Origin: Candidatus Scalinduaceae bacterium
Lineage (GTDB): Bacteria > Planctomycetota > Brocadiia > Brocadiales > Scalinduaceae
NCBI GenBank assembly: GCA_046759445.1
Contig: JBHICG010000001.1
Coordinates: 64,001 to 128,000, forward strand
DNA length: 64,000 nt
Direction of reading: 5' to 3'
Position 1 is the first letter of the stretch; every line of letters starts with the position of its first letter. Below are positions 25,185 through 50,827 of this stretch, piece after piece. The notes below the pieces were generated by a model. That model ran no database searches. It was given only the letters and a program-made list of their open reading frames with translations, and was not told where the DNA came from. A program made the position numbers and the translations under genes.

Positions 25185-25727
25185 GTGAGTCAAAGAGATA
25201 GTCTTCTTATTCACATAGATGCCTTATACAGGTCAGCATTATATCTTGTCAAAAAGGAAAATAGTGCAGATGATCTGGTTCAGGAAACATATTTAAGGGC
25301 ATTCAAATTTCTCAGCGAAGACAAAGAAATTAATAATGAAAAAGCATGGTTATTTAAAATACTAATTAACACTTTTATAAATCAGTACCGGAAAGACAAA
25401 AGAGAACCTTCTCTGGTCGATTTTGATAGCATTGAATCCTTTCACGAATCAATAGAAGAAGAGGCTTTAATGTTGTCAAATACAGAAAACATGGCAGAAT
25501 TAGATAAATTGTTGGACGACGACGTAAAAAAAGCTCTGGAAAGTTTACCCGATGATTTTAGAATGGTAGTCTTGCTTTCTACTGTCGAAGGTTTTTCTTA
25601 TAAAGAAATTTCAGAAATGGTTAAATGCCCAATCGGCACAGTAATGTCTAGAATATATAGGGGACGAAAGATGTTAAAGGAAAAATTAGCCAGTTACGCA
25701 AAGAAACATGGTTATGGGAAAGGATAA
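25185..25727 (+). CDS. ECF sigma factor, SigR/SigH-like
   Basis: DLVQETYLRAF, AWLFKILINTFINQYRK, EGFSYKEI...PIGTVMSRIYRGRKML. Confidence 0.93.
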   Translation: MSQRDSLLIHIDALYRSALYLVKKENSADDLVQETYLRAFKFLSEDKEINNEKAWLFKILINTFINQYRKDKREPSLVDFDSIESFHESIEEEALMLSNTENMAELDKLLDDDVKKALESLPDDFRMVVLLSTVEGFSYKEISEMVKCPIGTVMSRIYRGRKMLKEKLASYAKKHGYGKG

Positions 25728-25730
25728 GAA

Positions 25731-26537
25731 ATGAATTGCAATAACGTTAGAAAATATTTTTATGCTTTTATTGATAATGAACTCGATGTAGAAAAGAATG
25801 TTGAGGTCCTCGCACATCTTGATATGTGCTATGAATGTAGCCATAAAATAGAAAGGGAACGGCTACTTCAGAAAAGAGTGAAAGAAACTGTTTGTACGGT
25901 TAAAGCTCCTGACTATCTTGAACATATGATCTTAAAGAAGACAGAACGAAAACCTAACTTCTTTACTCTACTTAGAAGTAACTTAATGTTAAGAAACAAC
26001 TTAATCCCTCTTGGCGCTATAGCAATAACGATAATCCTAATAGTTAGTATCTTCGTAATACAAAGCAACTTGAAGAAAAATGATGTTCTTTATCTCGCAG
26101 AGTCAAAATTTCACAACCACATAACGAAGCCATTTGAGCCTGATATACGTTCACAGGATAATGAAGTAATTATGGAGTACTTCCAAAGCAAAACAAACTT
26201 AAACATAACTTTGCCTGGTATTGAAGAGGGTACACAATTAGTTGGTGCGTCATTGTCTGAAATTAATAATGCGAAGGTTCCAATGGTCTTTTATATGCAA
26301 GAAAACAACCTAATTGCGTTGTTTATAGTTTGTAATACTGATCCCCTATCTGGGTATGGGGCAAACATTGATTTTACAAAGATGAAAGAGGTTATAGTAG
26401 ATAAGATGGTGGTATATAAAGATAATGGATTTTGTAATTCTTGTCAGGTTATTGGGTGGAAAGATGTTGGCAACCAGTATGTCATGATATCAAAGTTGAA
26501 TAGTGATAAGATGATAAAAATGCTAACTGAAGTATGA
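25731..26537 (+). CDS. Zinc-binding (zf-HC2/ZAS) membrane anti-sigma factor
   Basis: MNC...HLDMCYEC, TM helix; paralogous to 16840..17640. Confidence 0.9.
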   Translation: MNCNNVRKYFYAFIDNELDVEKNVEVLAHLDMCYECSHKIERERLLQKRVKETVCTVKAPDYLEHMILKKTERKPNFFTLLRSNLMLRNNLIPLGAIAITIILIVSIFVIQSNLKKNDVLYLAESKFHNHITKPFEPDIRSQDNEVIMEYFQSKTNLNITLPGIEEGTQLVGASLSEINNAKVPMVFYMQENNLIALFIVCNTDPLSGYGANIDFTKMKEVIVDKMVVYKDNGFCNSCQVIGWKDVGNQYVMISKLNSDKMIKMLTEV

Positions 26538-26547
26538 GGATAAATAA

Positions 26548-27240
26548 ATGACCAATAAAAAATCAATAATAAAATTTATAATTCTAATAACTATCGTTGC
26601 AGGCGCATTTTTTGCATTCACATATACACCCTTATCACAATATACTCAGAAAGATACACTATTGAGTATCCTTGCACAACTCAGGGAGCATTGGTGGGGA
26701 CCTATCGGTTTCATCCTTATTTATGGTATCGGGTGTGTTATTGCATTACCGGGTTCACTCTTGACTTTATGTGGTGGTGCAATATTTGGAGTGGCATGGG
26801 GTACTCTCTATAATATATTGGCTTCTAACCTGGGTGCCACTCTTGCATTCTTAATGGCAAGATACTTCGGTCGTGAATTTGTATCAAGGTTTATGAAAGG
26901 AAGAATAGAATCCTTTGATGAAAAGGTTGCCAGTAATGGTTTCAGGTTTATATTCACACTTAGATTAATACCCCTTATCCCTTTTAATGGACTTAATCTT
27001 GGCTCCGGTCTTTCCAGGATTAAGTATCGTGATTATTTGCTAGGCTCTGTCCTGGGCATGATACCAGGTACGTTTATTTATACCTATTTTGCAGACGCAC
27101 TTCTCGATGGTGTCACAGGAAGCGGAAAAAGGGCGTTTACTAACCTGATAGTTGCCAGTTCACTATTGATACTGATTTCATTTGTGCCTACTCTTTATAA
27201 GAAATTAAAAAAATCGAAAGGTATGGAGGGCATAACATAG
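26548..27240 (+). CDS. TVP38/TMEM64 (VTT/DedA) membrane protein
   Basis: LPGSLLTLCGGAIFG, LGATLAF..ARYFGR, LRLIPLIPF. Confidence 0.92.
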   Translation: MTNKKSIIKFIILITIVAGAFFAFTYTPLSQYTQKDTLLSILAQLREHWWGPIGFILIYGIGCVIALPGSLLTLCGGAIFGVAWGTLYNILASNLGATLAFLMARYFGREFVSRFMKGRIESFDEKVASNGFRFIFTLRLIPLIPFNGLNLGSGLSRIKYRDYLLGSVLGMIPGTFIYTYFADALLDGVTGSGKRAFTNLIVASSLLILISFVPTLYKKLKKSKGMEGIT

Positions 27241-27377
27241 TCACGGAGAATGTATGAATGGAGAATATTTGAACGTAACTCTGGTAAGCCACACGTGGAT
27301 AGAAAACATGTGGTTACCAGACATTCGCAAAATTAAGGCTTTTAATTTGAAGTTAAGTTATTAGAAGGAGAAAGATT

Positions 27378-28802
27378 GTGAGAGATTTTGACCTTACGAT
27401 TATCGGCGGTGGCGCAGGAGGCTTAAATGTGGCGAGTGGGGCGGTTCAACTTGGCGCCAGGGTTGCCCTTATTGAGAAAAGCAAACTCGGAGGAGACTGT
27501 CTTTATTACGGATGTGTCCCCACTAAGGCATTAATTCAGTCTGCAAAAATTGCATCTCTCATCAAAAGGTCTAAGGAATACGGTCTGAATGATACGAATA
27601 TCTCCTTCGATTTTAAGAATATTATAACTCACATGAAAGATGTGATATCAAAAATTGGTGTACATGATGACCCTAAAAGGTTTGAAGATATGGGCGTACA
27701 GGTATTTTTTGGTGATGGCAAATTTATTGACCCTCACACCTTTGAATTCAACAATCATACGATTACGAGCGGAAAATTCGTTATCTCAACAGGTTCAAGA
27801 GCCGTTGCTATCCCCATCAAAGGTCTTGAAAATATCAAATATTTAACCAGTGAAAGCGCCCTGGAGCTGGATTATTTGCCCAAATCAATAATTATATTAG
27901 GCGCTGGTCCGATAGGACTGGAGTTTGCGCAGGTGTTTGCAAGATTAGGGTCAAAGGTTATCGTTATAGAAAAGATGGGTCAGGTTTTACCGCGTGAGGA
28001 CAAAGAAGTTGCAGACATTCTCGAAACTATCCTTAAGGAAGAGGGTATTGAGATTCATACATGTGTCAATGTAAACCATGTAAAACAAGAAGGAAATCTA
28101 AAGATCGTTGTAGCCGAATGTAGCGGACTGGAAAAGACATTTCAGGCTGATGAATTTATGCTTGCTATTGGACGTGCACCCAACCTTGAGGGGCTTAATC
28201 TTGAAGCTACCGGGGTTAAGGTAGAACACAGGGCTATCGTCGTAAATAGTTCCATGCGAACTACTGCAAGGAATATATGGGCATGCGGAGACGTGACAGG
28301 GCAATATTTGTTTACGCATGTTGCCGAATATCAAGCTGGCCTTATAGTAGCTAATGCCTTAATTCCTCTAATGAAGAGAAAGGCAAACTATCGTGTGGTT
28401 CCGTGGGTTACCTATACAGACCCTGAATTAGGCAGGGTAGGACTAACTGAGGATGAAGCAAGACAAAAATATAAGAATGTGAAGGTATACAAGTATGATG
28501 TAAAGGAATTAGACAGAGCAGTCATAGAGGGTGAAGACAAGGGAATTATTAAGATTGTTTGCACAAAGAAGGGTAAGATACTGGGAGCACATGTCCTTGC
28601 ACCACAAGGTGGAGAACTGCTACATGAATTTGTCCTGGCAATACAGAATAACCTTGGAGTTGGAAGTATTACAGGTACTATCCATGTCTATCCAACATTA
28701 GCTCAAGCGGTGAGAAGAACCACTAACAAATACTATGCAGAAAAGATATTTTCTGGTTGGATTCCCAAAGTTACCAAGAAGCTGATAAGATGGTTTGGTT
28801 AA
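27378..28802 (+). CDS. FAD-dependent pyridine nucleotide-disulfide oxidoreductase (MerA/Lpd-like)
   Basis: GGGAGG, GGDCLYYGCVPTK, GAGPIG, HVYPT; lacks the MerA C-terminal CC pair. Confidence 0.9.
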   Translation: MRDFDLTIIGGGAGGLNVASGAVQLGARVALIEKSKLGGDCLYYGCVPTKALIQSAKIASLIKRSKEYGLNDTNISFDFKNIITHMKDVISKIGVHDDPKRFEDMGVQVFFGDGKFIDPHTFEFNNHTITSGKFVISTGSRAVAIPIKGLENIKYLTSESALELDYLPKSIIILGAGPIGLEFAQVFARLGSKVIVIEKMGQVLPREDKEVADILETILKEEGIEIHTCVNVNHVKQEGNLKIVVAECSGLEKTFQADEFMLAIGRAPNLEGLNLEATGVKVEHRAIVVNSSMRTTARNIWACGDVTGQYLFTHVAEYQAGLIVANALIPLMKRKANYRVVPWVTYTDPELGRVGLTEDEARQKYKNVKVYKYDVKELDRAVIEGEDKGIIKIVCTKKGKILGAHVLAPQGGELLHEFVLAIQNNLGVGSITGTIHVYPTLAQAVRRTTNKYYAEKIFSGWIPKVTKKLIRWFG

Positions 28803-28953
28803 ATGTTTCTCACTTGCCAGAATAGCCTGGACGGGTGAGGGGGAAAACAGACTGGTTGTGGTTAGTACTTAGACGGATAGAAATAAGACAGTTGAAAAAG
28901 GTACTAATGCCAATAAGATATTAACTAAATTTATTAAGAAAGAAGAAACTTGA

Positions 28954-29082
28954 ATGAAAAAGGTTTTTTCATTATTAATAGTTTTGTCAATAATCTTGTT
29001 TGTGGTTGGCTGTACGTATACGGATTCTACTAAATCGACCCATAGTAGTAGCCAAACTCCTGAATATGAATATAAGTATTAA
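28954..29082 (+). CDS. Small 42-aa lipoprotein (below the ORF-track cutoff)
   Basis: MKKVFSLLIVLSIILFVVGCTYTDSTKSTHSSSQTPEYEYKY: basic N-terminus, hydrophobic core, VVGC lipobox. Confidence 0.6.
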   Translation: MKKVFSLLIVLSIILFVVGCTYTDSTKSTHSSSQTPEYEYKY

Positions 29083-29118
29083 AAGAATATTTCAAGAACG
29101 ATCCATAAATACTATTAG

Positions 29119-29916
29119 ATGTATAAACATATGCAGGCACATTCAGGAGATATAACAATGAAGTTTATTATATTTGTTTTAATTCTCATGGCAGGTTATA
29201 GCATGGTAGCCAAAGTTTATGCAGACGGAAAAAACGATCCGAATTCTATATTTGATGGTGTTTTAAATCGTCATGTCTTAAAGGATGGATTGGTTAATTA
29301 TAAGGGGCTAAAGAAGGATAAAGAGTTTAAGAAATATATTGAATATCTTTCTAATACAGACCCTGATACCCTGCCAACCGATAGACACCGTTTTGCTTTC
29401 TGGATAAACGCATATAACGCATTTGTCTTAAAGGGGGTATTAGAAGAGTATCCAATAAAGAGTGTGCTTGACGTTAGCTGGATTCCTCACAGTTTTTTTA
29501 TAAGAAAAAAATTTAAGACAACTCATGGAAATATTACTCTGCGAACACTGGAAAATGAGAAACTAAGAGAAGCATTTAGAGAACCAAGAATACATTTCGT
29601 TATTAACTGTGCATCAATTAGTTGTCCAAAATTATTAGCAGAGGCATATAAGGCCGAAAAATTGGAACAGCAACTTGAAAAACAGGCAAATTCTTTTATT
29701 AACAATAAAACCAAGAATTATCTGAATAAAGAAAATAATATCTTATATCTCTCTTCTATCTTTAAGTGGTATGAGGGGGATTTTATTAAAAAAGGTGAAA
29801 AAATAGAAGGGTATATTACAAGATATTTAAATCCAGATGATGCGGATTACGTCAGGAACAATGAAATAACCATAAAGTACCTCGATTACGATTGGGGCTT
29901 AAACGAAAAAAAATAA
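29119..29916 (+). CDS. DUF547 domain protein, exported
   Basis: AFWINAYNA, EPRIHFVINCASISCPKL, LSSIFKWY, YDWGLNE; true start probably the ATG at 29158. Confidence 0.92.
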   Translation: MYKHMQAHSGDITMKFIIFVLILMAGYSMVAKVYADGKNDPNSIFDGVLNRHVLKDGLVNYKGLKKDKEFKKYIEYLSNTDPDTLPTDRHRFAFWINAYNAFVLKGVLEEYPIKSVLDVSWIPHSFFIRKKFKTTHGNITLRTLENEKLREAFREPRIHFVINCASISCPKLLAEAYKAEKLEQQLEKQANSFINNKTKNYLNKENNILYLSSIFKWYEGDFIKKGEKIEGYITRYLNPDDADYVRNNEITIKYLDYDWGLNEKK

Positions 29917-34454: not shown

Positions 34455-35150
34455 ATGATAAGTAAGATGAAGATACTTGGCATCAGTGGGAGTCCAAGAA
34501 AAAGTCAGACAACAGAGGGATTAGTTAGGACAATCCTGGATGCAACTGGTTTAGAGACAGAATTAATATCTTTACACGGCAAGAAGATTAATGGTTGTAT
34601 ATGTTGTCTGGGATGTGTTGAAGACAATATCTGTAAAGTCCAGGATGATTATATCCCCTTAATGCATAAGGTACTGGAAGCAGACGCTATCGTGATTGGT
34701 GCTGCCAATTATTTTGGCAGGCTTAATGCCCTCACACATTCATTTCTAGAACGACTTTACTGCTTCAGGCATAACAAGGATGGACATGGTGGTATGAGAC
34801 TTTCCGGTAAATTAGGGGCTATTGCTTCAGTAGGGGGCGGCGGGGAATGGGAAATGCCCGGAAGAGATAGTAAAATGTACGAGATTGCAGGAGAAGATGT
34901 TAGGGGATTTTTTGACTATAATGAGATTGAGCTTGTCGGAATCGTAGAGGCACAGGGTGCAGTACCATGCTTTTCGTGTGATTATGGTGAAGTCTGCAGT
35001 GTAAGCGGTGTAAAAGCTTTTTTTGGCAAGGGTGCAAAGATTACGCCCGAAATCATACCGTGTTTGGAAAAGCAGCCTGAAGTCGTAAATAAGGCAAAAA
35101 TGCTTGGAAATGCCTTGCACGATAGATTAAAAAATAAAGAAAAAATGTAA
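34455..35150 (+). CDS. Flavodoxin-family / iron-sulfur flavoprotein
   Basis: GISGSPRK, CICCLGC....C, extra CFSCDYGEVC motif. Confidence 0.88.
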   Translation: MISKMKILGISGSPRKSQTTEGLVRTILDATGLETELISLHGKKINGCICCLGCVEDNICKVQDDYIPLMHKVLEADAIVIGAANYFGRLNALTHSFLERLYCFRHNKDGHGGMRLSGKLGAIASVGGGGEWEMPGRDSKMYEIAGEDVRGFFDYNEIELVGIVEAQGAVPCFSCDYGEVCSVSGVKAFFGKGAKITPEIIPCLEKQPEVVNKAKMLGNALHDRLKNKEKM

Positions 35151-35369
35151 AACAATCTACGGATGTTTACCTCGTACCTCATAGATATTGCCAAATATGA
35201 CGAACAATTTCCCGACAACATTCCGCGAAACGGGAGCGGGCACAAAGAGGTGCGAGGTTTACATTAATGTTCCCATGTTGGATAGCAAACATCTAAGGGG
35301 TAAAAAAACCTTTATTTAAAAGTTTTTACTGATAGAATGATTACTTTTTGATTTTGAGATATATTTCGG

Positions 35370-35936
35370 ATGAAAAATTTTTTTATAAATTGTTATTTAA
35401 GAATCTTATTCACTGTTGGAATAGTCCTGTGCGGGATTCTCAATTTGGAATTGAAAGGTAAAGCTGCCTCTATTGGAAAACAGGCCCCCGAGTGGGTGAT
35501 TTCCGAATGGATTAATACTACAGGATTTACACTTGCGGATATGCGTGGAAAGGTTGTGGTGATTGACTTTTTCCAGCTCTGGTGTCCCGGTTGTAACAAT
35601 TTCTCCATACCCCTTATGGAGAAATGGAAACAAAAATATCGTGGTCATAAAGATATTCAATTGATTGGTATTCATACGGTCTTTGAGGGACATTCTCATC
35701 AAACACCAAAAAGATTACGCCAATACATCAAAGAAAAGAACATAGCTTACCCTGTAGGAATTGATGATCATGTATCAAATAAAAGAACACCAGAAACAAT
35801 GATTCGTTATCGTACTCGTGGAACTCCTGAAATGGCAGTCATTGATAAAGGGGGTAATATCCGTTTTCAGCATTTCGGTGGTTTTAATCCAGCAGTTGCA
35901 GAAAAGCTTATAGATGCACTTCTAGCCGAAAAGTAG
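35370..35936 (+). CDS. TlpA/peroxiredoxin-like redoxin
   Basis: FQLWCPGC, GIHTVFEGH, RGTP. Confidence 0.85.
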   Translation: MKNFFINCYLRILFTVGIVLCGILNLELKGKAASIGKQAPEWVISEWINTTGFTLADMRGKVVVIDFFQLWCPGCNNFSIPLMEKWKQKYRGHKDIQLIGIHTVFEGHSHQTPKRLRQYIKEKNIAYPVGIDDHVSNKRTPETMIRYRTRGTPEMAVIDKGGNIRFQHFGGFNPAVAEKLIDALLAEK

Positions 35937-36030
35937 CTTCGTACAATGCTGTGAAAAACAGCAGGAAATGTCTTAAGAGATATAAAACCCGTTAAGATAG
36001 TAAACGTGAGAATAACTATTTTAACCCTTT

Positions 36031-36104
36031 TGTCATTCCCGCGAAGGCAGGAATTCACACCCCTTTGTAACAATTGTGTCATTTCTCCTTTCGTAGGAAC
36101 GACA
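36031..36104. repeat. TGTCATTCCCGCGAA-type REP-like inverted pair
   Basis: tgtcattcccgcgaaggcaggaattc ... tttctcctttcgtaggaacgaca. Confidence 0.6.
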
Positions 36105-36155
36105 CACTTATTGTCTAAATATTTATTGTTTTCTATATAAAAACGAAATACTTTT

Positions 36156-36764
36156 ATGGATTATAAGTTTTTAATAAATACATACGAGACAGAGAGAATT
36201 AAGACTTTGAGTACATGGTGCACGTTCAAGGACGAGGACCTTCCTAAGCGTCCTCATCCCGGGGATAAACGCGGGAGAAATGCTCTTGAGCATATGGTTC
36301 ATCAGTGTATGAGTGAGAATAAATGGTTTACGGGCATGCTGGGTATTGATGTCGGTGCTCCCCCATTACCTGAAAAGGAAACACGTTTGGAGTTTATTAA
36401 GCGTTATGCTGAAGATTCAGAAAAACGGGTAGAGGCCTTAAAAGAGAAGGATAATAATTGGTGGGAAGAAGATGTCAAGTTCTTCGAATTTAATCGTTCA
36501 CGAGCATGAATTGTTACCAGAAGAATCACCCATACTGCACATCACCGAGGTCAACAGACTATGTTATTGCGAATGTTGGAACGTGAGATTTACAGCACTT
36601 ATGGTCCAACTGCTGATACAGGTGGTTTACAACAAAATAATGCGCTAACGATATATCCTTATCTTAATATAGAAACACTAATCAAAGAAGAAACAGCCGG
36701 TGGTGCCAAGGCTTCATTGCCAGGGCCTGGAGAAAAACCATGTACGGAACGACCTGAATCTTAA
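36156..36764 (+). pseudogene. DinB family protein interrupted by one in-frame TGA (36507-36509)
   Basis: ORFs 36156..36509 and 36561..36764 share a frame; read-through gives SRA*IVTRRITHTAHHRGQ, the DinB His motif. Confidence 0.8.
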
Positions 36765-39297: not shown

Positions 39298-40425
39298 ATG
39301 GCAATATTAATAATCCTTTTCCTGACTACGTGTTTTCTTGCATACTCAAACGGTGCTAATGATAACTTTAAGGGAGTAGCTACGCTCTTTGGTAGCAGAA
39401 CTACTAATTATAAAAACGCCATTCGGTGGGCGACTATTACGACTTTTGCAGGTTCGGTGGGTTCGGTATTCTTTGCTCACGCCCTTGTAAAGACCTTTTC
39501 TGGAAAGGGGTTGGTACCACAGGATATCTCTATATCACCTGAATTTCTTACCGCGGTGGCAATCGGTGCCGCTATTACGGTCATGGTTGCGACGGTTACG
39601 GGTTTCCCCATATCAACCACACACAGTCTTACGGGCGCCCTCGTTGGCGCTGGGTTTATGGCCATAGGCTCGGAGGTTAACTTTACCGTCTTGGGCAGCT
39701 CTTTTTTTCTTCCACTTTTACTCAGTCCCTTTATCGCAACAGCAATTGGCGGAATTCTTTATATTTTATTCCGAAGTATTCGCATTCGTTCTGGTATTAC
39801 AAAGGAGTGGTGTCTTTGTATTGGCGAGCAGAAGGAAATAATACCCTCTACCCAGCCAGTTGCTATCCTTGCAGCAAAATGTGGGAATTCCATCGATGCG
39901 ACAATTGATAAAAGTCAAAACTGTATAGAAACCTATAAAGGAAATTTCCTGGGCATGAATTGCCAGAAGATGTTAGATTATCTGCACTTTTGTTCTGCTG
40001 GCATTGTGAGTTTTGCCAGAGGCTTAAATGATACACCAAAGATTGTAGCACTTTTATTATTAATCAAGGGTCTGGCAATACACTGGGGTATGCTGGCTGT
40101 CGCTGTTGGTATGGCGCTAGGCGGACTTTTAAATGCCCGCAAAGTCGCCGAAACTATGAGTAACAAAATCACAAGGCTTAATCACGGTCAGGGCTTTACA
40201 GCAAACCTTGTTACTGGTATACTTGTTATATTTGCCAGTAAGTTTGGAATGCCAGTATCTACGACACACGTATCAGTAGGGTCGCTCTTCGGTATAGGCT
40301 TGGCTACTAAGCACATAAACACTCATAAAGTACTAGAAATAATTTTATCGTGGTTCATAACACTGCCCTTAGCTGCTATATTCAGCGGCGGCGCTTATTG
40401 GATATTAGTCAGATTTGCGAATTAA
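39298..40425 (+). CDS. PiT family inorganic phosphate/anion transporter
   Basis: NGAND, PISTTHS, GLND and PVSTTH signature repeats. Confidence 0.92.
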   Translation: MAILIILFLTTCFLAYSNGANDNFKGVATLFGSRTTNYKNAIRWATITTFAGSVGSVFFAHALVKTFSGKGLVPQDISISPEFLTAVAIGAAITVMVATVTGFPISTTHSLTGALVGAGFMAIGSEVNFTVLGSSFFLPLLLSPFIATAIGGILYILFRSIRIRSGITKEWCLCIGEQKEIIPSTQPVAILAAKCGNSIDATIDKSQNCIETYKGNFLGMNCQKMLDYLHFCSAGIVSFARGLNDTPKIVALLLLIKGLAIHWGMLAVAVGMALGGLLNARKVAETMSNKITRLNHGQGFTANLVTGILVIFASKFGMPVSTTHVSVGSLFGIGLATKHINTHKVLEIILSWFITLPLAAIFSGGAYWILVRFAN

Positions 40426-40577: not shown

Positions 40578-42089
40578 ATGGATAAAATGTTTTTAATAAT
40601 AATCCTTATTTTCTACTGTCCTGCAGCATTATGGTTGTTCCTCTATGGCATTAACAATTATTATATGGTTTATCTTTTTTTAAGTAAAAGGAAGAAAGAA
40701 GCATCTCAAAATGCTGAATTCCTCAAACGGTTCTGGTCTACTCATGGCAAATACAAGTTGCCAAAAGTTACTACACAATTACCCATATATAATGAAAGAT
40801 ACGTAGTAAAACGTTTAATTAAGGCGGTTGTGAATCTTGATTATCCGAAGGAACTACACGAAATTCAGATACTGGACGATTCTAATGATGAAACGAGAGA
40901 TATAGTAGCTGATCTGGTTAATAAATACAGTAAAAAGGGATTCAACATAAAACAAATCATCAGAGAAAATAGAATTGGGTTTAAGGCAGGTGCCTTAAAT
41001 AAAGGACACGAAGAAGCTGAAGGTGAGTTTCTGGCAATCTTTGATGCTGACTTTGTGCCTGATAAAAACTTTTTTTATGAAACCATCCCTTTCTTTTACG
41101 AAAAAGAAAAAGTTGCCCTTGTCCAGACACGGTGGGGACACATAAATAGAAATTACTCTCTCCTAACAATTGCCCAGAGTATTGGCATGGATGGACACTT
41201 TATTATTGAACAGGGCGCCAGGACATGGAACGGCCTTTATATGAACTTTAATGGGACTGCTGGAATCTGGAGGAAAGAGGCAATCGTTGATGCTGGAGGG
41301 TGGCATTATGATACTTTAACTGAGGATTTAGATTTATCATACAGGGCACAATTAAAAGGATGGAATACAAAATTTCTTTTTGATGTAGTAACGCCTTCAG
41401 AGTTACCCGTGGATATGAATGCCTATAAGTCCCAACAGCATAGATGGGCTAAAGGCTCAATACAAACTGCCAAGAAGGTTTTGCCACAGATATTTAAGAC
41501 GAAAGATAGTTTTACAAAGAAGATTGAGGCATTTATACACCTCAACCAGTATATGGTACACCCTATGATGATCGTCCTTGCCTTACTATCCCTTCCATTA
41601 ATAATCTTATTAAAACCATTAGTAATCTCTATTTCTAGTACAATGGTAGCCCTGTTGCTTCTAATATTCCTGGGAGCCTCTGCACCATCATTTCTTTATA
41701 TAGTATCTCAGAAGGTAGGTTATAGGGATTGGTGGAAAAGATGTTTGTTTATACCTGCGCTTATGTTTATCGGATGTGGAGTTGCCATCAATAACACAAA
41801 GGCTGTGCTTGAAGCATTATTTAACATTAAGAGTGATTTTGTTAGAACGCCGAAGTACGGTGTTATCAGAAGAGGAAAGAACATAATAGCAAAAAATTAT
41901 ACTTTACCAGTAAAGTTATTCTTTGTCAGTGAAATACTCTTAAGTATATATTGTTTTATTGGATTCATACAATATACAAACGACAAGAAGTTTGTCTTTG
42001 GGCCTTTTCTATTAATGTATGCAATAGGGTTTTTCTACGTAGGCATACTGTCTCTTTTGCAAAAATTTAATGAGAAAATAAAATGCTGA
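40578..42089 (+). CDS. Membrane GT2 glycosyltransferase, cellulose-synthase-like
   Basis: QLPIYNE, LDDS, GFKAGAL, FDADF, TEDLD, QQHRW, FVRTPK. Confidence 0.93.
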   Translation: MDKMFLIIILIFYCPAALWLFLYGINNYYMVYLFLSKRKKEASQNAEFLKRFWSTHGKYKLPKVTTQLPIYNERYVVKRLIKAVVNLDYPKELHEIQILDDSNDETRDIVADLVNKYSKKGFNIKQIIRENRIGFKAGALNKGHEEAEGEFLAIFDADFVPDKNFFYETIPFFYEKEKVALVQTRWGHINRNYSLLTIAQSIGMDGHFIIEQGARTWNGLYMNFNGTAGIWRKEAIVDAGGWHYDTLTEDLDLSYRAQLKGWNTKFLFDVVTPSELPVDMNAYKSQQHRWAKGSIQTAKKVLPQIFKTKDSFTKKIEAFIHLNQYMVHPMMIVLALLSLPLIILLKPLVISISSTMVALLLLIFLGASAPSFLYIVSQKVGYRDWWKRCLFIPALMFIGCGVAINNTKAVLEALFNIKSDFVRTPKYGVIRRGKNIIAKNYTLPVKLFFVSEILLSIYCFIGFIQYTNDKKFVFGPFLLMYAIGFFYVGILSLLQKFNEKIKC

Positions 42090-43135
42090 TTATGAATATT
42101 CCTGATAAAAGACTTTTTCAATTATTTTGCCTAATAGCCTGTTTAACGATTCCAGCAATTGATTTAGACCGTACATGTTTTGCAAACATACACGAAAAGG
42201 ACGAAATAAAATATGTACTTCCTCGTGACGCTATCCCTGCCATAAAGAATCCTGAATTTGTCCCTGCAAGTGAAGCAAGACTTGATGATGATGAACCTGT
42301 TATAGGCATAACTATTAATGGTGAAAGTCGTGCCTATTCTGTTTATCTCCTGAATCATCACGAAATAGTCAATGATAAAATAGGAGATAAAGATATTGCC
42401 ATCACCTGGTGTCCCCTTGCGAACCTGGCAGTTGTATATAACAGGAAAGTTGACGGCAAAGAATATACGTTTGGAGTATCGGGTAAGCTACTCAAGAACA
42501 CCCTCGTAATGTTTGATTACGAAACTGAATCCCTCTGGCCAATCGTTTATGGCAAGGCTATAGATGGAAAACTATCGGGTAAAAAAACAAATATAGTAGT
42601 TAACAGCCAAAAGATGTCATGGGGTGCATGGAAGGCATTACACCCAGATACATTGCTACTGTCTCTTCATGGTTCAAGAACAGTTGGTTATGATGTTTAT
42701 AAACATTATCATAAGAGTAAAAAAACAGGCATATATCCTGTCGTAAATTCAGATAAAAGTTTAAGTGCGAAGACAAATGTTATCGGAATAGAACTTAATA
42801 GCAAACATAAGGCTTATCCCTTTAGCATATTTGATACTACGAAAATAGTTACTGATAAATTTCAGGGTGAGGACTTGCTTATTTATAGAAACAATGAGAC
42901 CAATAATATCATGGTCTATGATAGACACGTAGACGAATATATAATTGATTTTGAAGAAAATTCATCACAAAATTTTGCTACGGATAAAACAACAAAAACT
43001 ACGTGGGACTTGGAAAATGGGATTGGCATAAAGGGTAACATGAAGGGTATACGGTTACAACGTGTTAGTTTTATGGCCATTTACTGGTTTGTCTGGGCAG
43101 ATTATTATCCTGATACTGAAATATTTAATCAATGA
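42083..43135 (+). CDS. DUF3179 domain protein
   Basis: DAIPAI..PEF, HEIVND, TWCPL, FGVSGKL, FVWADYYP. Confidence 0.9.
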   Translation: MLIMNIPDKRLFQLFCLIACLTIPAIDLDRTCFANIHEKDEIKYVLPRDAIPAIKNPEFVPASEARLDDDEPVIGITINGESRAYSVYLLNHHEIVNDKIGDKDIAITWCPLANLAVVYNRKVDGKEYTFGVSGKLLKNTLVMFDYETESLWPIVYGKAIDGKLSGKKTNIVVNSQKMSWGAWKALHPDTLLLSLHGSRTVGYDVYKHYHKSKKTGIYPVVNSDKSLSAKTNVIGIELNSKHKAYPFSIFDTTKIVTDKFQGEDLLIYRNNETNNIMVYDRHVDEYIIDFEENSSQNFATDKTTKTTWDLENGIGIKGNMKGIRLQRVSFMAIYWFVWADYYPDTEIFNQ

Positions 43136-43394: not shown

Positions 43395-43453
43395 CGAGGG
43401 GGAAATGGGGGTGGTTAAATAAAATGGAATCTCAGTTACATTGAACAAATACC

Positions 43454-44950
43454 ATGAATAGGAAATTACTTTCCATAATAATAACAGGACTGGTCATTGA
43501 AATCCTGTGTATTTCGATTGCTTCCCTTGGAGATATCAAGGAAAATATACCTATGTTTTGTTTTCTGTATACAGCCTCTTTTATTGTTTATATCTTTGCT
43601 GTATTTTATATTTTGAAAAACACCGAGATATTTGGAAAAGACAAAAGCAATTCTAAAAAGATTCTTTGGACTATTATAATCTTTTCACTGATATTTCGTT
43701 TGACACTATTACCTATGACTCCATCAGAGGATGTTTATCGTTACTTATGGGAAGGAAAGTTACAATTAAATTGGCTTAATCCATATTCCTACCCGCCGGA
43801 ATCGTCAAGTCTGGAACATCTCAGGGACAACTTTTTTTCCGGCATTAACCACAAACATCTGACCACAATCTACCCTCCACTGACGTTAATGGCGTTTGCC
43901 CTAGCGGATTACGTATCTCATTCCTTCATATCAATGAAGTCTACTTTTTTGTTTTTTGATGTGCTTTCAATATTCATATTAATAAGGTTTTTAAGGGTAG
44001 TGGGAGGGAAACCCGCTAATGTGTTGATATATGCATGGAGCCCGTTAGTCCTTATTAGTTTTGCGGCAAAGGGACATTGCGATTCTTTGCAGATATTTCT
44101 CGTAATTCTTGCCTTATACCTTTTCTCTATTAGAAAGAATTTAAAATCTATCGTTTCGATTGGCCTGGCAGCAATGTCCAAATTTGTATTCATTATTATA
44201 GCCCCTTTCTTAATTCCCAGACGTAAACTCAAATATCTTATAGTTTTGTTTACAGTTATTGCACTTTTGTACTTACCATACATTGGCGCTGGTAAGGGGT
44301 TATTTTCGACACTTTTACATTTTGGGACTCAATATCATTACAATGATTCAGCTCACTTCCTGATTTTTTGCCTATGTCTCGGCTCTCCATTTATGTCTAA
44401 GATAATTACGTCTATAATTTTTTGCGCTGTACTTTTGTATTTGTATATAAATCATATGACCCTTTTATTTACAAAAGATAATGAAAATTCCCCTAATTCC
44501 TGCTTTAGCAGGCATAAAGGGGGGACAAATCCCCCTCTTTCCCCCCCGCAGCTTTCTTGCACCGTATCGGCACTATGCGAAAGCAAGAAGCAGGGGGGAT
44601 TTAGGGAGATTGATGATAATATTTTAAAATTTGCCTTTCTGTCTGTTGGTACCTTTTTAATATTTGCACCAACAGTTCATCCATGGTATCTAACATGGAT
44701 TGTCCCCTTCCTCTGTTTCTATCATAGCTGGGCATGGCTTGTCTTGACAGGAACTGTTGTTTTCTATTATTTTATGAATCATAATTTATTTTCAAGTATG
44801 ATAGAGTATAACAACGAATGGGTATGGCAAGAAGTCCACTGGTTAAAATTACCAGAATATGTCCCTTTTTATTGTCTGTTAATTTATGGATGGCTAAGAT
44901 CAGGTTCAGCCGCTAAGGCACGCCAGAACGATGTATCGGCTGTGTCATAA
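43454..44950 (+). CDS. GT-C fold membrane glycosyltransferase (GT87/DUF2029-like) with an in-frame repeat insertion
   Basis: SEDVYRYLWEG, TIYPP, YAWSPL, GHCD, PTVHPWY; many TM segments. Confidence 0.85.
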   Translation: MNRKLLSIIITGLVIEILCISIASLGDIKENIPMFCFLYTASFIVYIFAVFYILKNTEIFGKDKSNSKKILWTIIIFSLIFRLTLLPMTPSEDVYRYLWEGKLQLNWLNPYSYPPESSSLEHLRDNFFSGINHKHLTTIYPPLTLMAFALADYVSHSFISMKSTFLFFDVLSIFILIRFLRVVGGKPANVLIYAWSPLVLISFAAKGHCDSLQIFLVILALYLFSIRKNLKSIVSIGLAAMSKFVFIIIAPFLIPRRKLKYLIVLFTVIALLYLPYIGAGKGLFSTLLHFGTQYHYNDSAHFLIFCLCLGSPFMSKIITSIIFCAVLLYLYINHMTLLFTKDNENSPNSCFSRHKGGTNPPLSPPQLSCTVSALCESKKQGGFREIDDNILKFAFLSVGTFLIFAPTVHPWYLTWIVPFLCFYHSWAWLVLTGTVVFYYFMNHNLFSSMIEYNNEWVWQEVHWLKLPEYVPFYCLLIYGWLRSGSAAKARQNDVSAVS

Positions 44951-44968
44951 TTATAAAAACGCTCTCAA

Positions 44969-45116
44969 TGTCATTCTGAACCCTTCGCCCGTCATTCTGA
45001 GCCGAAGGCGAAGAATCTAGTTGAGGCTCAGGATAAACTCCGTTAAGAATCTGATATCTTCAGTAGGTTATAAAACCGAGATTCTTCGGCTAACGCCTCA
45101 GAACGATTATATGACA
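44969..45116. repeat. Nested cluster of TGTCATTCTGA-type REP-like palindromes
   Basis: tgtcattctgaacccttc / cgtcattctgagccgaaggcgaagaatct ... agattcttcggctaacgcctcagaacga. Confidence 0.7.
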
Positions 45117-45164
45117 GAGCTTTAAATATTTCTTACATAATGTTTTATGGGAGGTTAACACTAA

Positions 45165-47711
45165 ATGGAAGTAAACGATAAATCACTTTTTTACGTACAT
45201 GATTATGTTCAAATAGAGAGAGACTCTCTTTATCTACTTATAGACCCCGAAACACCAAATTGGATTGTAACTGACAAAAGAGGCAGCCAGATTGTAAGCA
45301 ATATTAAAAAATGTAAAAACGTTAGAAAACTGATATTCGACTATGCAAATGATTTTGATATGGAACAAACCAGGGCATGGTTGGAAATAGATACATTTCT
45401 GAGGGATTTGATAAGGTGTAAATTCTTATCCTCAGAACCCGTAAAGAAAACTGCTTACGTCGGCAGATCAAATTTCATTCACGCAGAAAAACTCAATGAA
45501 CTATGGATTCACACTAATAATCTCTGCAATCTGACATGTCCGCATTGTCTGGTGAATTCATCTCCACACGAGGATAAAGGTCTTCCTACGGACTCAATCA
45601 AGAAGATTATTGACGAAGCTGTAACATTAGGAACAAGCTGTTTCTATTTTACGGGTGGCGAGCCATTTATGAGGAAAGATATTTTTGAACTTATTGAGTA
45701 TGTTTGCAATCGTAAAGGGACAGAACTGATAATACTTACAAATGGAACACTTCTGAGAGGAAACATCATTGAAAGATTACAAAAGTTTAATAAGGAACAA
45801 CTAAGGATTCAGATAAGCCTTGATGGTTCAAAGCCGGAAATAAACGACCCTTTGAGGGGTAAGGGCAGCTTTGACCAAATTATCGAGGGGATTAAGAATA
45901 TTATCAGGATTGGATATTCTCCGACAATAACAACCGTGGTGACAAAACATAATATTAATGATGTGCCTGAAACGACAAAGCTGATTGCACAATTGGGTGT
46001 AAAGACTCATCATCTCCTCTGGGTACACAAACGAGGCAGGGTAACTGATAATGGTAATGATTTTTTTACTTCAATAGATGAGGTAATCGAAACAACGAGA
46101 AAGGTGAAGGATGTAGCAGATAACCTGGGTATGTCAGTAGACAACATTGATTCTTACAAATTCAGGGCAAATAGCAACAGAGGAACACGTTACGATTTGG
46201 GTAATGCCTGTTACGATAGCATGTGCGTATATTCAAATGGTGAAGTCTACCCGTCTGCTTCATTTGCCGGCCATGAAGGGCTGAAATGTGGAAGTATACT
46301 TGAGAATTCCCTTAGAGAAATCTGGGAAAATAGTAATATTAGCAAGGCATTTAGAAACGCAACACTACAGAATAAAGAAAAATGCAACGAATGTCATATA
46401 AAGTTTATATGCGGTGGTGGTGATATTGAACATTCATTCTTCTATTCTGAAAATGGGTTCAAGCTGGAAAATAATAAATTCCCTGCAGACGTTGGCGTAC
46501 ATGCCTTGGACCCTTATTGTGACCTGCACAAGGAGATAGTCAATGACGTAATATTTGAGCTTGCTGAGGCGAGGAAGAAGTTGTTGGAAAGAAAAACAGG
46601 GTTTACTGCTCCCGTTGTATTACGCTCAATGGGCGAAGGCTCTCTCAATTGTGGATTGACGATTTCGGATTTCGGAATAGAAAATCTAAAATCCGAAATC
46701 CGAAATCCGAAATCGGTTCGTACTCTTCATTCAAACTGTGTGCTTTCTTTTGACGTGGATAAGCCAAGAAGTATTGTACGTGAGTTTTATGGTAATGCGG
46801 CAGAAGCTCCTCAAGAGGACTTATGTTGTCCAACCAAGAATTCAACAGAAGATACAAGTCATATTCCACAGGATGTATTGGACAGGTTCTATGGATGCGG
46901 AAGTCCGACTACAATAGCAGAAGTCTCAGAAGGAGAGACGATGGTCGATTTGGGAGCAGGCGCGGGGATTGACTGTTTCATTGCTGCAAAGAAGGTTGGC
47001 CCAAAGGGTAAGATTTACGGGATAGACATGACGGATGAAATGTTAAAGGTTGCCAATGAAAACAAACATCCGGTGGCAAGGAACCTTGGTTACGATATTG
47101 TGGAATTTAGAAAAGGATTTTTAGAAGATATTCCCGTTGATAATAATTCAGTTGATTTGATCACATCAAATTGCGTTATCAATCTATCCCCTGACAAAAA
47201 AAAGGTCTTCGGCGAAATGTGGCGAATACTGAGGGATCACGGGAGGATTGTTATCTCTGATATTGTTTCTGAAGAAGAAACTCCTCCGTTTTTAAAAATC
47301 AATAAACAACTGTGGGGTGAATGCATCAGCGGCGCATTAACCGAAGACGAATTTATGTCCTATCTTGAACAGGCTGGCTTTTATGGACTTCAAACACTAC
47401 AGAAGGTCTTCTGGAAAGAAGTGGAAGGGTATTCATTCTATTCAGTAACATTACGTGGGTATAAGTTTGAAAAGAAGGAGGGTTGTGTATACGTTGGGCA
47501 AAAGGCAATTTATCATGGCCCGTATAAGGCAATAACGGATGAAGAAGGCCACCTGTTCCCCAGGAACGAGCCCGTTGAAGTCTGCACAGATACAGCGGCC
47601 AAACTAAGCAACCCACCTTATGCAGGACAATTTACCATATTCAATCCTGACGATGCAAATACCGCATCATACAATTGCAGTCCCTCGGAAGAAGGCGTTC
47701 CTTGTTGTTGA
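45165..47711 (+). CDS. Fusion: PqqD/RRE-like N-terminus + radical SAM/SPASM + arsenite methyltransferase (ArsM-like)
   Basis: CNLTCPHC, FTGGEP, SLDG; SPASM-type cysteines; LCCP, FYGCGSP, DLGAGAG, SNCVINL, WGECISGA, terminal CC. Confidence 0.9.
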   Translation: MEVNDKSLFYVHDYVQIERDSLYLLIDPETPNWIVTDKRGSQIVSNIKKCKNVRKLIFDYANDFDMEQTRAWLEIDTFLRDLIRCKFLSSEPVKKTAYVGRSNFIHAEKLNELWIHTNNLCNLTCPHCLVNSSPHEDKGLPTDSIKKIIDEAVTLGTSCFYFTGGEPFMRKDIFELIEYVCNRKGTELIILTNGTLLRGNIIERLQKFNKEQLRIQISLDGSKPEINDPLRGKGSFDQIIEGIKNIIRIGYSPTITTVVTKHNINDVPETTKLIAQLGVKTHHLLWVHKRGRVTDNGNDFFTSIDEVIETTRKVKDVADNLGMSVDNIDSYKFRANSNRGTRYDLGNACYDSMCVYSNGEVYPSASFAGHEGLKCGSILENSLREIWENSNISKAFRNATLQNKEKCNECHIKFICGGGDIEHSFFYSENGFKLENNKFPADVGVHALDPYCDLHKEIVNDVIFELAEARKKLLERKTGFTAPVVLRSMGEGSLNCGLTISDFGIENLKSEIRNPKSVRTLHSNCVLSFDVDKPRSIVREFYGNAAEAPQEDLCCPTKNSTEDTSHIPQDVLDRFYGCGSPTTIAEVSEGETMVDLGAGAGIDCFIAAKKVGPKGKIYGIDMTDEMLKVANENKHPVARNLGYDIVEFRKGFLEDIPVDNNSVDLITSNCVINLSPDKKKVFGEMWRILRDHGRIVISDIVSEEETPPFLKINKQLWGECISGALTEDEFMSYLEQAGFYGLQTLQKVFWKEVEGYSFYSVTLRGYKFEKKEGCVYVGQKAIYHGPYKAITDEEGHLFPRNEPVEVCTDTAAKLSNPPYAGQFTIFNPDDANTASYNCSPSEEGVPCC

Positions 47712-47735
47712 TGCTACTCTGGGCATGCCCTAATA

Positions 47736-48371
47736 TCATTTCAGTGTCTGGTTATACGCTTTTATATTTATGAGCATCACCTCAACGGCCATCATGGCAG
47801 TTGACCAAATAATGTCAGTTGACAGATGTGATACACAACTTGAATCGAACAAGAGGGACGACTTTGATGAGAATTCTTCATCACCTGACCACACAATAAG
47901 TACTACAGGCACCCTTGGAAAAGGGGAAAGCTTTAAAGAAATATCTCCATATTCTAACTGAGAACCATCAAGACTTTTACCGATGTTTAAAAATTCCTTA
48001 AAATTATTGCTAAAGTACTCAGCTATTTTATCCAGGGGAATGACATGCGTGCCTTTCAAAAAAATATCTCCTCCAGGTAAATCTGAGGGCCGCACGAGTT
48101 GACCCGATAACGGTAGATCTTTCGCATGAATCAAGTATCTAAGAATTGAAAGCCTTGAATATTCACGAAGTTCTTTGACCAGGAATTTCCCTAAACTAGA
48201 AGTACCGAAGATATCTCGATTCGTCAATGAAATATAGACATCCTGACCAAAGCAGGCTAGTTCATATGTCGAATTATGAGAATTAAAAATTACATTAGCC
48301 CTGGTTTTTACATCCTTTGAGTCAAGCCCTGTAAGTATATCCCATGCCTGTTTTTCACCTGGCCATGCCAT
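47736..48371 (-). CDS. DUF3786 domain protein (gene cassette)
   Basis: ILRYL, LPGG.IF, PFPRVPV..IVWSGDEEF.S..LLFD; preceded by attC core GTTGTAC. Confidence 0.8.
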   Translation of the reverse strand: MAWPGEKQAWDILTGLDSKDVKTRANVIFNSHNSTYELACFGQDVYISLTNRDIFGTSSLGKFLVKELREYSRLSILRYLIHAKDLPLSGQLVRPSDLPGGDIFLKGTHVIPLDKIAEYFSNNFKEFLNIGKSLDGSQLEYGDISLKLSPFPRVPVVLIVWSGDEEFSSKSSLLFDSSCVSHLSTDIIWSTAMMAVEVMLINIKAYNQTLK

Positions 48372-48385
48372 AATTTATTCTTTTT

Positions 48386-48460
48386 GTACAACGCTCCGCA
48401 TAACCGGCTGGTAAAGAAGCACAGCAGATTTACCAGTCTGAGTTGATGCGGTTGTTGGGC
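48386..48460 (-). other. Integron attC site
   Basis: Minus strand GCCCAAC-aaccgcatcaac...ctggtaaa...tttaccag...ggttatgcggagc-GTTGTAC; imperfect palindrome with RYYYAAC/GTTRRRY-like ends. Confidence 0.88.
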
Positions 48461-48474
48461 ATTGTGCATATGCA

Positions 48475-49344: not shown

Positions 49345-49431
49345 ATAATTATCCTTTAATAGGTGTATCTTTTAAATTTGATGCTTAACGTTCAGCTTAA
49401 CCGGCTGGCTTTGTAGACATTTTTTCTTGGG

Positions 49432-49590
49432 TTTCTTGGGGATGCATCTTGATATTTGACATTGTGAATTTGCGGCTTACTAAAAAAAGATTTTCCTTCC
49501 ATGATTTTTCAAATAATTTCTTTGATGTTTGATTTGTTTATCAATTTGTTGGTTTTAACTTTGTCAAATGTCAAATACGTCCCCTATCTC
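49432..49590. repeat. About 160-bp REPIN/MITE-like element, copy A
   Basis: Near-identical to 51798-51957; terminal IRs ggggatgcatcttgatatttgaca / tgtcaaatgtcaaatacgtcccc. Confidence 0.85.
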
Positions 49591-49706
49591 CCGTCCTATC
49601 TCCGTCTATTATTGTTTTTTACGCAACTATTTTACTGCAATCCTTCGCCAAGAGGATGTTGCCGTGACTTTTCTATTCTGTAGTGCTTTGTTATGTTTTT
49701 TTGTAA

Positions 49707-50825: not shown

Positions 50826-50827
50826 TT

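Follow-up and report, generated by a model that had tools for sequence, protein, structure and literature searches.

What does a bacterium make with an enzyme that unites, in one polypeptide, the modules of a peptide-modifying radical S-adenosylmethionine (SAM) enzyme and those of an arsenic methyltransferase? This question is raised by a gene of a Candidatus Scalinduaceae bacterium, a marine anammox organism of the Candidatus Scalindua type, located in a stretch of 64,000 nucleotides of contig JBHICG010000001.1 (assembly GCA_046759445.1, positions 64,001 to 128,000), which we call the window and within which all positions are counted. The gene is a single unbroken open reading frame (ORF) that runs from an ATG at 45165 to a stop codon at 47711 and encodes 848 residues, in which a recognition element for peptides that are ribosomally synthesized and then post-translationally modified (RiPP recognition element, RRE), a radical SAM core with a SPASM-type region and an ArsM-type methyltransferase follow one another. 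We consider it somewhat probable that this fusion is a single-chain organoarsenical synthase, in which ArsM and a radical SAM enzyme other than ArsS together make an organoarsenical of the arsenosugar type. Full-text literature searches, with subscription journals outside their coverage, returned no publication on a fusion of ArsM with a radical SAM enzyme. The protein thus far stands as a widespread but uncharacterised variation on the pairing of ArsM with radical SAM chemistry.

Architecture of the fusion enzyme

The ORF is an intact fusion of a radical SAM enzyme of the peptide-maturase type with a complete ArsM (Table 1). Its full-length AlphaFold2 (AF2) model, built on an alignment of 85 sequences, has a predicted local distance difference test score (pLDDT) of 86.9 and a predicted template modeling (TM) score (pTM) of 0.84, with pLDDT values below 50 solely at residues 504-515 of the linker and in the C-terminal tail (residues 831-848), which is probably flexible. 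By fold, this model matches ArsM structures (E 2.5e-22) and the maturase CteB, the latter with TM scores of 0.74-0.75 across about 485 columns within residues 1-500. As many as 2397 database proteins match the sequence at E ≤ 0.001, far above chance, and 115 of the best 120 listed homologues cover at least 98% of the query with 50-89% identity, the other five covering 77-93%.

The C-terminal third is, on the strength of its alignments, a complete ArsM-type As(III) SAM methyltransferase. Its highest NCBIfam scores are those of arsenite methyltransferase models, NF008823 ahead of NF040538 and NF038099. Pfam assigns class I methyltransferase domains to residues 589-738, the SAM motif DLGxGxG occupies residues 595-601, and residues 515-832 align with the solved chains of CrArsM (5evj, E 6e-41), CmArsM (4fr0, 3.2e-36) and human AS3MT (8xt7, 1.1e-35), the identity to stand-alone ArsM/AS3MT structures being 31-33% over about 290-300 aligned columns. 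C578 (GCGSP), C670 (SNCV) and C720 (GECI) fall on the cysteines of the GCG, SNC and GEC motifs of CmArsM, and C554 (LCCPT, C554-C555) on the N-terminal cysteine of CrArsM; in CmArsM numbering, we take the four conserved cysteines to be C44, C72, C174 and C224. All conservation counts given here derive from 85 full-length homologues. None of them varies at C554, C555, C578, C670, C720 or C847; C848 is found in 83, and 73 sequences end in CC. Four cysteines specific to the family (C496, C525, C774 and C807) are equally invariant, C774 and C807 being aligned with alanines in CrArsM. Together, these four residues may form an additional metal, Fe-S or arsenic site.

Regarding the first 500 residues, they correspond to a canonical radical SAM enzyme, which should generate the 5'-deoxyadenosyl radical. 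The Pfam Radical_SAM model (PF04055) matches residues 119-273 with 99.4 bits (cut-off 29.5), the triad C121/C125/C128 is kept in 85/85 homologues, and in the GGEP motif G164, G165 and E166 are invariant and P167 is found in at least 90%. The Pfam SPASM model (PF13186) matches residues 350-411 with 33.4 bits (cut-off 21.5). SPASM proteins are characterised by seven cysteines for two auxiliary 4Fe-4S clusters, but the motif here reads CX2CX5C-GGGD without a fourth cysteine. C407, C410 and C416 are present in 69-70 homologues, and 15 lack the whole trio; next to it, no homologue varies at G417-G419, and D420, E422 and H423 are found in at least 90%. The best match among NCBIfam radical SAM families, over residues 5-419, is the RRE-bearing sactipeptide maturase StsB (NF045574; 146.7 bits, cut-off 625). 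The ArsS model TIGR04167 gives 77.6 bits on the radical SAM core (cut-off 300), through its positions 2-151 of 303 only.

At the N-terminus, the Pfam PqqD model (PF05402) matches residues 23-88 weakly (E 0.038; 14.8 bits, below the cut-off of 23.4). The same model is matched at E ≤ 1 by 18 of 28 homologous N-termini, the best at 4.9e-7, and a precomputed PF05402 match is carried by 13 of the best 120 listed homologues. In the AF2 model of residues 1-110 (28 sequences, pLDDT 87.1), three strands are followed by three helices, which is the RRE topology, and the top Foldseek matches of this model in the PDB are all RREs. They include TbiB1 in complex with its leader peptide (E 2e-4, TM 0.73-0.78) and further RREs from lasso B1, McbB, TigE, ThcOx, MadB, PqqD, MibB, LynD and CteB; against PqqD (5sxy), the TM scores are 0.64/0.73. 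With D27, P31, W33 and Y60 invariant in 85/85 homologues, the RRE fold is, as judged from these models, real and well conserved.

The original prediction, made from the DNA letters alone, had described a three-part fusion of a PqqD/RRE-like domain of about 90 residues, a radical SAM/SPASM enzyme and ArsM, and this description proves correct by Pfam, NCBIfam, the solved ArsM chains and AF2/Foldseek. The CX3CX2C that it named lies in a Radical_SAM domain above its Pfam cut-off, and its SPASM-type cysteines belong to a region that scores above the SPASM cut-off but has lost C407, C410 and C416 in 15 homologues. Its ArsM cysteines (CC, GCG, SNC, ECI) coincide with the four arsenic-binding positions of solved ArsMs and its terminal CC with C847-C848, and structure prediction, which it had proposed as a check of the PqqD resemblance, yields an RRE fold despite the sub-cut-off Pfam score of the window protein itself.

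Distribution and a shorter form in Brocadiaceae

To judge from sequence matches, the full-length fusion is widespread across many anaerobic phyla. The nearest homologues and loci bear the names Scalindua or Scalinduaceae. Among the best 120 listed homologues, source names include Scalindua, Anammoxibacter and Brocadiia and, for metagenome-assembled genomes, Thermodesulfobacteriota, Nitrospinota, Dadabacteria, Latescibacteria and Zixibacteria, and Omnitrophica are found among the genome loci carrying the fusion. In a metagenome scan, at least 551 relatives were confirmed out of 597 pattern matches.

A short fusion occurs in Brocadiaceae. It starts at the radical SAM motif and consists of a radical SAM core and ArsM only, with neither an RRE nor a SPASM match. 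Relative to the window protein, its identity is 33% in the radical SAM core and 54% in the ArsM part, and C774, C807 and the terminal CC are kept. Three Brocadiaceae genomes (G062, G132 and G151) have ArsM-type matches in open frames of 609-627 residues, and a fourth genome (G186) holds a fragment at a contig end. At locus L130 of genome G062, a fatty-acid hydroxylase gene, TIGR04283 (239 bits) and TIGR04282 (185 bits) directly precede the short fusion; this second copy of G062 has two in-frame TAA codons in the genome search, and the short fusion of G132 adjoins a phage-type integrase and a DDE transposase. Since the short form lacks both the RRE and SPASM and still adjoins TIGR04283 and TIGR04282, these two domains are unnecessary for the association with such genes.

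Gene context in distant loci and the search for a precursor peptide

In order to describe the genes that accompany the fusion, the ORFs of 97 loci and of the window were clustered and cluster representatives annotated; 73 of the loci, in which the fusion is less than 64% identical to that of the window, make up the distant set. TIGR04282 and/or TIGR04283, two families that were originally described as companions of the radical SAM family TIGR04167 (now named ArsS), score above their curated cut-offs in at least 25 of the 73 distant loci, the scan having covered the members of a single cluster. A PHO4 transporter gene is found in 22 distant loci and lies directly downstream of the fusion in 14 of those 22, and genes for a MerA-like flavoprotein, a DUF547 protein and a VTT/DedA protein are found in 19, 16 and 12, respectively. 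At least one of these recurrent neighbours is present in 47 of the 73 distant loci, and in 35 of the 47 distant loci that have at least 6 kb of flanking sequence. Genes for ArsC-like proteins, Cu/Zn superoxide dismutase, DsrE and fatty-acid hydroxylase occur in 3-5 distant loci each, the ArsC-like LMWP type in 3/73. Additional radical SAM genes (NirJ1/AhbD-like, MoaA-like and Tes-like) accompany the fusion in only a small number of loci, which are related to one another, and were not adopted as partners.

Within 2.5 kb of the fusion, 467 ORFs of 20-95 residues from 84 loci were clustered, and no conserved small ORF that could encode a precursor peptide emerged: small-ORF families are limited to near-identical or closely related loci, the largest comprising four closely related Scalindua loci. 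Likewise, no protease, exporter or other RiPP-type gene recurs among the annotated neighbours. Because of these two negative results, the RRE would be either repurposed, for instance as an inter-domain element, or bound to a partner encoded elsewhere; the pTM of the full-length model fits a fixed arrangement of the domains, which is compatible with an inter-domain role.

Arsenic genes in the host genome and in other Planctomycetota

The host genome, which is 97% complete, contains TIGR04283 (238 bits, in the window) and TIGR04282 (203 bits, on another contig). No ArsS gene above cut-off is found in this genome, the best match to TIGR04167 being the fusion itself, and no other ArsM-like gene above 43 bits, the fusion being its only ArsM-like gene. 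There is one ArsC-like gene (139.8 bits, under the cut-off of 174.3), and neither of the arsenite pumps Acr3 and ArsB was found.

In a sample of 201 Planctomycetota genomes, 8 carry the long fusion, 75 have TIGR04282 above cut-off and 53 have ArsS above cut-off, with no genome holding both the long fusion and ArsS. Six of the eight long-fusion genomes have TIGR04282, beside the fusion on the same contig in three of them (G060, G089 and G104), and the other two (G030 and G116) are 86% complete; in the three Brocadiaceae genomes named above and in G186, TIGR04282 is present and ArsS is not. When the 75 TIGR04282 genomes are divided by whether they carry a fusion of either length (counting the fragment of G186), ArsS is found in 0/10 of the carriers versus 37/65 of the others. 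This exclusion between ArsS and the fusion is suggestive, not proof.

Proposed function and alternatives

If the fusion is an organoarsenical synthase, arsenate would be imported by the PiT/PHO4 transporter, whose gene is proposed to be co-transcribed, and then reduced to As(III). The cysteines of the ArsM domain would bind As(III), which would be methylated to a trivalent methylarsenical, and the radical SAM domain would add a further C-As bond, the likeliest reaction being the adenosylation of trivalent dimethylated arsenic (DMAs(III)), as in ArsS. In the available text of PMC13598754, ArsS is reported to adenosylate DMAs(III) into 5'-deoxy-5'-dimethylarsinoyladenosine. The flexible Cys-Cys tail together with C496, C525, C774 and C807 may hold this thiophilic and toxic intermediate or pass it between the active sites. 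In a later stage, the TIGR04282/TIGR04283 transferases, an AglJ-like polyprenyl-phosphate sugar synthase and GT-C membrane glycosyltransferases would transfer the sugar that carries the arsenic onto a lipid or a glycan of the envelope, and thiol-redox genes (MerA-like reductase, DUF547, VTT and ResA/DsbD-like) could support this chemistry.

One alternative starts from the N-terminal 500 residues, which are built like the sactipeptide and ranthipeptide maturases CteB, SuiB, SkfB and TigE, have StsB as their best radical SAM-family match and bear an RRE whose fold is real and conserved: the RRE would recruit a peptide or protein encoded at a distance, the radical SAM/SPASM part would cross-link it or modify it in another way, and the ArsM-like part would methylate it or attach an arsenical. 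However, the StsB score stays far under its cut-off, the CX2CX5C cysteines of SPASM are lost in 15 of 85 homologues, no conserved small ORF lies within 2.5 kb of the fusion in 84 loci, no RiPP gene recurs among the annotated neighbours, and the Brocadiaceae form, devoid of RRE and SPASM, keeps the same context, so that we regard a peptide or protein maturase as quite unlikely. In a variant that would leave the arsenic chemistry in place, the RRE recruits a polypeptide (a partner encoded elsewhere or a carrier) on which the organoarsenical is built or attached, with the four family-specific invariant cysteines and the terminal CC relaying arsenic inside the protein; we give it only a slim chance. 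If true, an arsenic-bearing peptide or a protein-bound arsenical would be a natural-product class not yet described.

It may also be that the same chemistry operates on selenium, tellurium, antimony or a thiol, with the PiT protein importing selenate, sulfate or a similar oxyanion. ArsM-like NCBIfam selenoprotein families without known substrate do match the methyltransferase domain at 127-139 bits, the PiT neighbour scores equally for sulfate permease and PitA, the window holds an ExtM-like cytochrome (249.7 bits, cut-off 800) and many thiol-redox genes, and ArsS is often a selenoprotein according to the available text of PMC13188914. Still, the proteins that match best in sequence and in fold are genuine As(III) methyltransferases, the four cysteines that bind arsenic being all present, ArsC-like genes are present in some loci, and the cytochrome gene is absent from 17 related genome loci, making a substrate other than arsenic rather unlikely. 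Finally, the fusion might serve arsenic detoxification only, ArsM methylating or volatilising As(III) and the radical SAM part assisting by demethylation, redox chemistry or repair without forming a C-As bond. With neither Acr3 nor ArsB found in the genome, methylation could indeed be the main arsenic defence, and stress-type thiol-redox and efflux genes lie nearby under extracytoplasmic function (ECF) sigma factors; yet a stand-alone ArsM suffices for methylation in many organisms, the complete radical SAM active site is strictly kept in 85/85 homologues, and both this conservation and the linkage with sugar-transfer genes point to biosynthesis. We thus hold pure detoxification to be very unlikely.

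Several observations weigh against an arsenosugar-type organoarsenical synthase as well. We infer its substrate and product from domains, motifs, conservation and gene context, and the conserved RRE is left unexplained by this model. On the methyltransferase side, the arsenite methyltransferase model NF008823 falls narrowly under its cut-off (240.4 versus 263 bits), with a match that spans residues 549-745 only, and the arsenosugar-ArsM model NF038099 falls far below its own (160.8 versus 400 bits). Regarding the gene context, 12 of the 47 well-flanked distant loci have none of the recurrent neighbours; the name "arsenosugar biosynthesis glycosyltransferase" of TIGR04282 and TIGR04283 is a label given by the NCBIfam curators; in the window genome, the TIGR04283 gene is 30 kb away from the fusion and TIGR04282 on another contig; and the best named matches of the PiT neighbour, sulfate permease (CysP) and PitA, are both weak (about 73 bits) and do not fix its substrate. 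As to the phyletic pattern, the Fisher p of about 0.001 in the TIGR04282 set ignores relatedness and pertains to a set chosen post hoc, and over all 201 genomes the absence of ArsS from the eight long-fusion genomes is not significant alone (p = 0.11). Moreover, 28 of the 75 TIGR04282 genomes have neither ArsS nor the fusion and 16 of the 53 ArsS genomes lack TIGR04282 above cut-off, so that the linkage of ArsS or the fusion with TIGR04282 is loose.

The original prediction had suggested that a single polypeptide may feed a methylarsenical into radical chemistry, possibly on a peptide or protein substrate. Its first half is supported, because the predicted ArsM is complete, the gene context is labelled by NCBIfam as arsenosugar biosynthesis and ArsS is absent from the genome. 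Its second half is unsupported: the search for conserved small ORFs near homologues, which had been proposed along with it, found none in 84 loci, RiPP-type neighbours are missing, and the Brocadiaceae form without RRE and SPASM adjoins TIGR04283 and TIGR04282.

Gene neighbourhood in the window

In Scalindua loci, the fusion closes a co-directional set of genes encoding a PiT/PHO4 transporter, a membrane glycosyltransferase of family 2 (GT2), a DUF3179 protein and a GT-C-like membrane protein. Among 17 related genome loci, these neighbours are present in 8, 12, 11 and 13, respectively; FMN reductase-like, ResA-like, DinB and CMD/AhpD-like genes stand ahead of the set in relatives. Relatives of the GT-C-like gene adjoin the fusion in other phyla too. 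Further upstream in the window, the five genes from the ECF sigma factor to DUF547 are arranged as in another locus (L014), where they lie directly upstream of the fusion, and the DUF547 gene of the window is the only one found in the genome. As for the AglJ-like GT2 and TIGR04283, they are fused in one gene in two loci (L081 and L090), where a single gene for a GT-C-like membrane protein separates it from the fusion.

Table 1. The fusion gene, its domains, its short relatives and its neighbours, with positions in the window unless a locus is named
Feature	Position	Strand	Size, motifs and basis
Whole fusion gene (P0001)	45165..47711	+	848 aa; ORF list and translation; AF2 full-length model
RRE/PqqD-like winged-helix domain, residues 1-95	45165..45449	+	PqqD matches in homologues, AF2, Foldseek
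Radical SAM core, residues ~111-300	45495..46064	+	CX3CX2C, C121/C125/C128; GGEP SAM-binding motif 164-167; PF04055
SPASM-type region, residues ~340-430	46182..46454	+	C349, C354, C375, C407-x2-C410-x5-C416, then GGGDIEH
Linker region, residues ~431-530	46455..46754	+	Invariant C496, C525; low model confidence at 504-515
ArsM-type methyltransferase, residues ~531-830	46755..47654	+	N-terminal Cys pair, SAM domain, As-binding domain, C-terminal domain; invariant C774, C807
Cys-rich tail ending in CC, residues 831-848	47655..47708	+	pLDDT <50
Short fusion, Brocadiaceae genome G132	L129:7655-9430		592 aa as called
Short fusion, second copy of genome G062	L130:7797-9371		525 aa as called
GT-C/GT87-like polytopic membrane glycosyltransferase	43454..44950	+	498 aa; no Pfam match; weak TIGR03459; orthologue in L017 matches GT87
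DUF3179 protein	42083..43135	+	350 aa; Pfam 278 bits; present in 4/73 distant loci
Membrane GT2, cellulose-synthase/PgaC type	40578..42089	+	503 aa; Scalindua group only (0/73 distant loci)
PiT/PHO4-family anion transporter	39298..40425	+	375 aa; Pfam PHO4 231.7 bits
FMN reductase-like, ResA-like thiol-disulfide oxidoreductase, shortened DinB-like ORF	34455..36509	+	Head the operon in other Scalindua
ECF sigma, zf-HC2 anti-sigma, VTT/DedA, MerA-like flavoprotein disulfide reductase, DUF547	25185..29916	+	Profile matches
AglJ-like polyprenyl-phosphate hexose GT2	14448-15140	+	Profile match
TIGR04283 "arsenosugar biosynthesis glycosyltransferase"	15269-15949	+	238.7 bits, cut-off 182

Around these genes, the window has several features of its own. 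A gene for a 770-residue multihaem c-type cytochrome (36966-39278), the ExtM-like protein mentioned above, of the "selenite/tellurite reduction operon" type, occupies the place that the CMD/AhpD-like gene holds before PHO4 in related Scalindua and has no counterpart in the 17 related loci; in the same region (36156-39278), the DinB-like ORF that precedes it is shortened to 117 residues versus about 202. A 56-nt element with C6...G6 ends is present twice at 91% identity, between the DUF3179 and GT-C-like genes (43248-43303) and in frame within the GT-C-like ORF (44542-44597), and looks like a small repeat of the repetitive extragenic palindromic (REP) or miniature inverted-repeat transposable element (MITE) type. 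The GT-C-like protein of the window has 498 residues versus 466 in five related Scalindua loci (range 437-545), and in the sequencing run X1 several contigs break at 43242-43316, where depth rises.

Just upstream of the AglJ-like GT2/TIGR04283 pair lies a gene for an AmmeMemoRadiSam system protein B (13482-14285; MEMO1-family, TIGR04336, 304 bits). About 270 bp past TIGR04283 begins a second ECF sigma/zf-HC2 pair followed by an efflux system of the resistance-nodulation-division (RND) type, with an AcrB-like protein of 1064 residues, a HlyD-type adaptor and an outer-membrane factor (16220-23823). The segment 30263-34445 is a series of genes related to metals and thiols, with an HMA-domain protein, an AhpC/TSA-type protein, three ORFs without family, a thioredoxin and also a DsbD-type membrane protein. 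This membrane protein matches the model of the selenoprotein TsoB in its DsbD part, with 181 bits (cut-off 805). Directly downstream of the fusion, the minus-strand genes at 47736-51724 were rejected as parts of the system, having no counterpart in the 17 related genome loci. They encode a DUF3786 protein, a TIR-domain protein (288 residues), a SacI-like restriction endonuclease and a D12-class N6-adenine methyltransferase, and look like a variable defence islet.

A scan of 39000-48500 for promoters and terminators gave no informative pattern, with 44 promoter-like sites versus 29.9 expected and 5 terminator-like sites versus 6.4 expected, all of the latter on the minus strand. RNA contigs from two DNase-treated metatranscriptome libraries of one study (X3 and X4) lie on the operon, several of them identical or nearly so, and one of 325 nt falls inside the fusion gene (45370-45694) with a single mismatch. 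Most of these contigs come from relatives, since they are only 90-95% alike; the contigs show neither strand, transcript ends or structure nor expression level, DNA carry-over is possible, and they are a weak hint of expression. The DNA runs X1 and X2 are possibly the source of this assembly and are not independent of it.

Comparison with known systems

A first close parallel to the fusion is the pair of ArsM and ArsS in arsenosugar biosynthesis, in which a SAM methyltransferase acting on As(III) is likewise matched with a canonical radical SAM enzyme and which has TIGR04282 and TIGR04283 as neighbours; no genome among those searched has both ArsS and the fusion. However, ArsM and ArsS are two polypeptides and the fusion is one. 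The radical SAM part of the fusion is no homologue of ArsS beyond the common core, its RRE-radical SAM-SPASM architecture being unrelated to that of ArsS; where ArsS has a C-terminal domain rich in Cys/Sec, the fusion has SPASM and no other Pfam match. ArsM and ArsL, which act in arsinothricin biosynthesis, offer a second parallel for C-As bond formation by a radical SAM enzyme with ArsM, the arsinothricin ArsM model NF040538 matching the fusion at 204.7 bits, far under its cut-off of 500. In the available text of its description (bioRxiv 10.1101/2024.02.01.577332), ArsL is a noncanonical enzyme that transfers a 3-amino-3-carboxypropyl group, whereas the fusion carries the canonical CX3CX2C and GGE motifs, and no arsQ-type context was seen at the fusion loci examined.

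Residues 1-500 contain the same three modules as the RRE-radical SAM-SPASM maturases CteB, SuiB, SkfB, TigE and PqqE with PqqD. In contrast to these enzymes, the fusion has no precursor gene in the 84 loci, carries ArsM at its C-terminus and reaches no RiPP family cut-off, and the fourth cysteine of the maturase motif CX2CX5CX3C is replaced by GGGD, with glycines that never vary among the homologues and an aspartate that rarely does. With stand-alone ArsM and AS3MT, the fusion has in common the four cysteines, the SAM motif and the C-terminal domain; it differs from them by its radical SAM enzyme, the invariant C774 and C807, and the terminal CC.

Outlook

The window has revealed a Scalindua-specific operon and accessory modules scattered across one 64-kb stretch, to which the present analysis adds the RRE-less form of Brocadiaceae, the counts of ArsS and fusion in 201 genomes and the test of the RRE fold. 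As far as the available texts go, ArsS and ArsL are the two radical SAM enzymes named as makers of C-As bonds (PMC13598754; bioRxiv 10.1101/2024.02.01.577332). If the proposed function is true, the fusion would be a third, independently evolved solution to this problem, built on a peptide-maturase scaffold joined to a methyltransferase. By its very nature, such a fusion fixes the pairing and stoichiometry of both activities, making the hand-over of a toxic trivalent methylarsenical directly testable. Since the fusion appears to be widespread, complex organoarsenicals may arise in anoxic sediments, oxygen-minimum zones and groundwater from organisms that have so far been uncounted in arsenic cycling.

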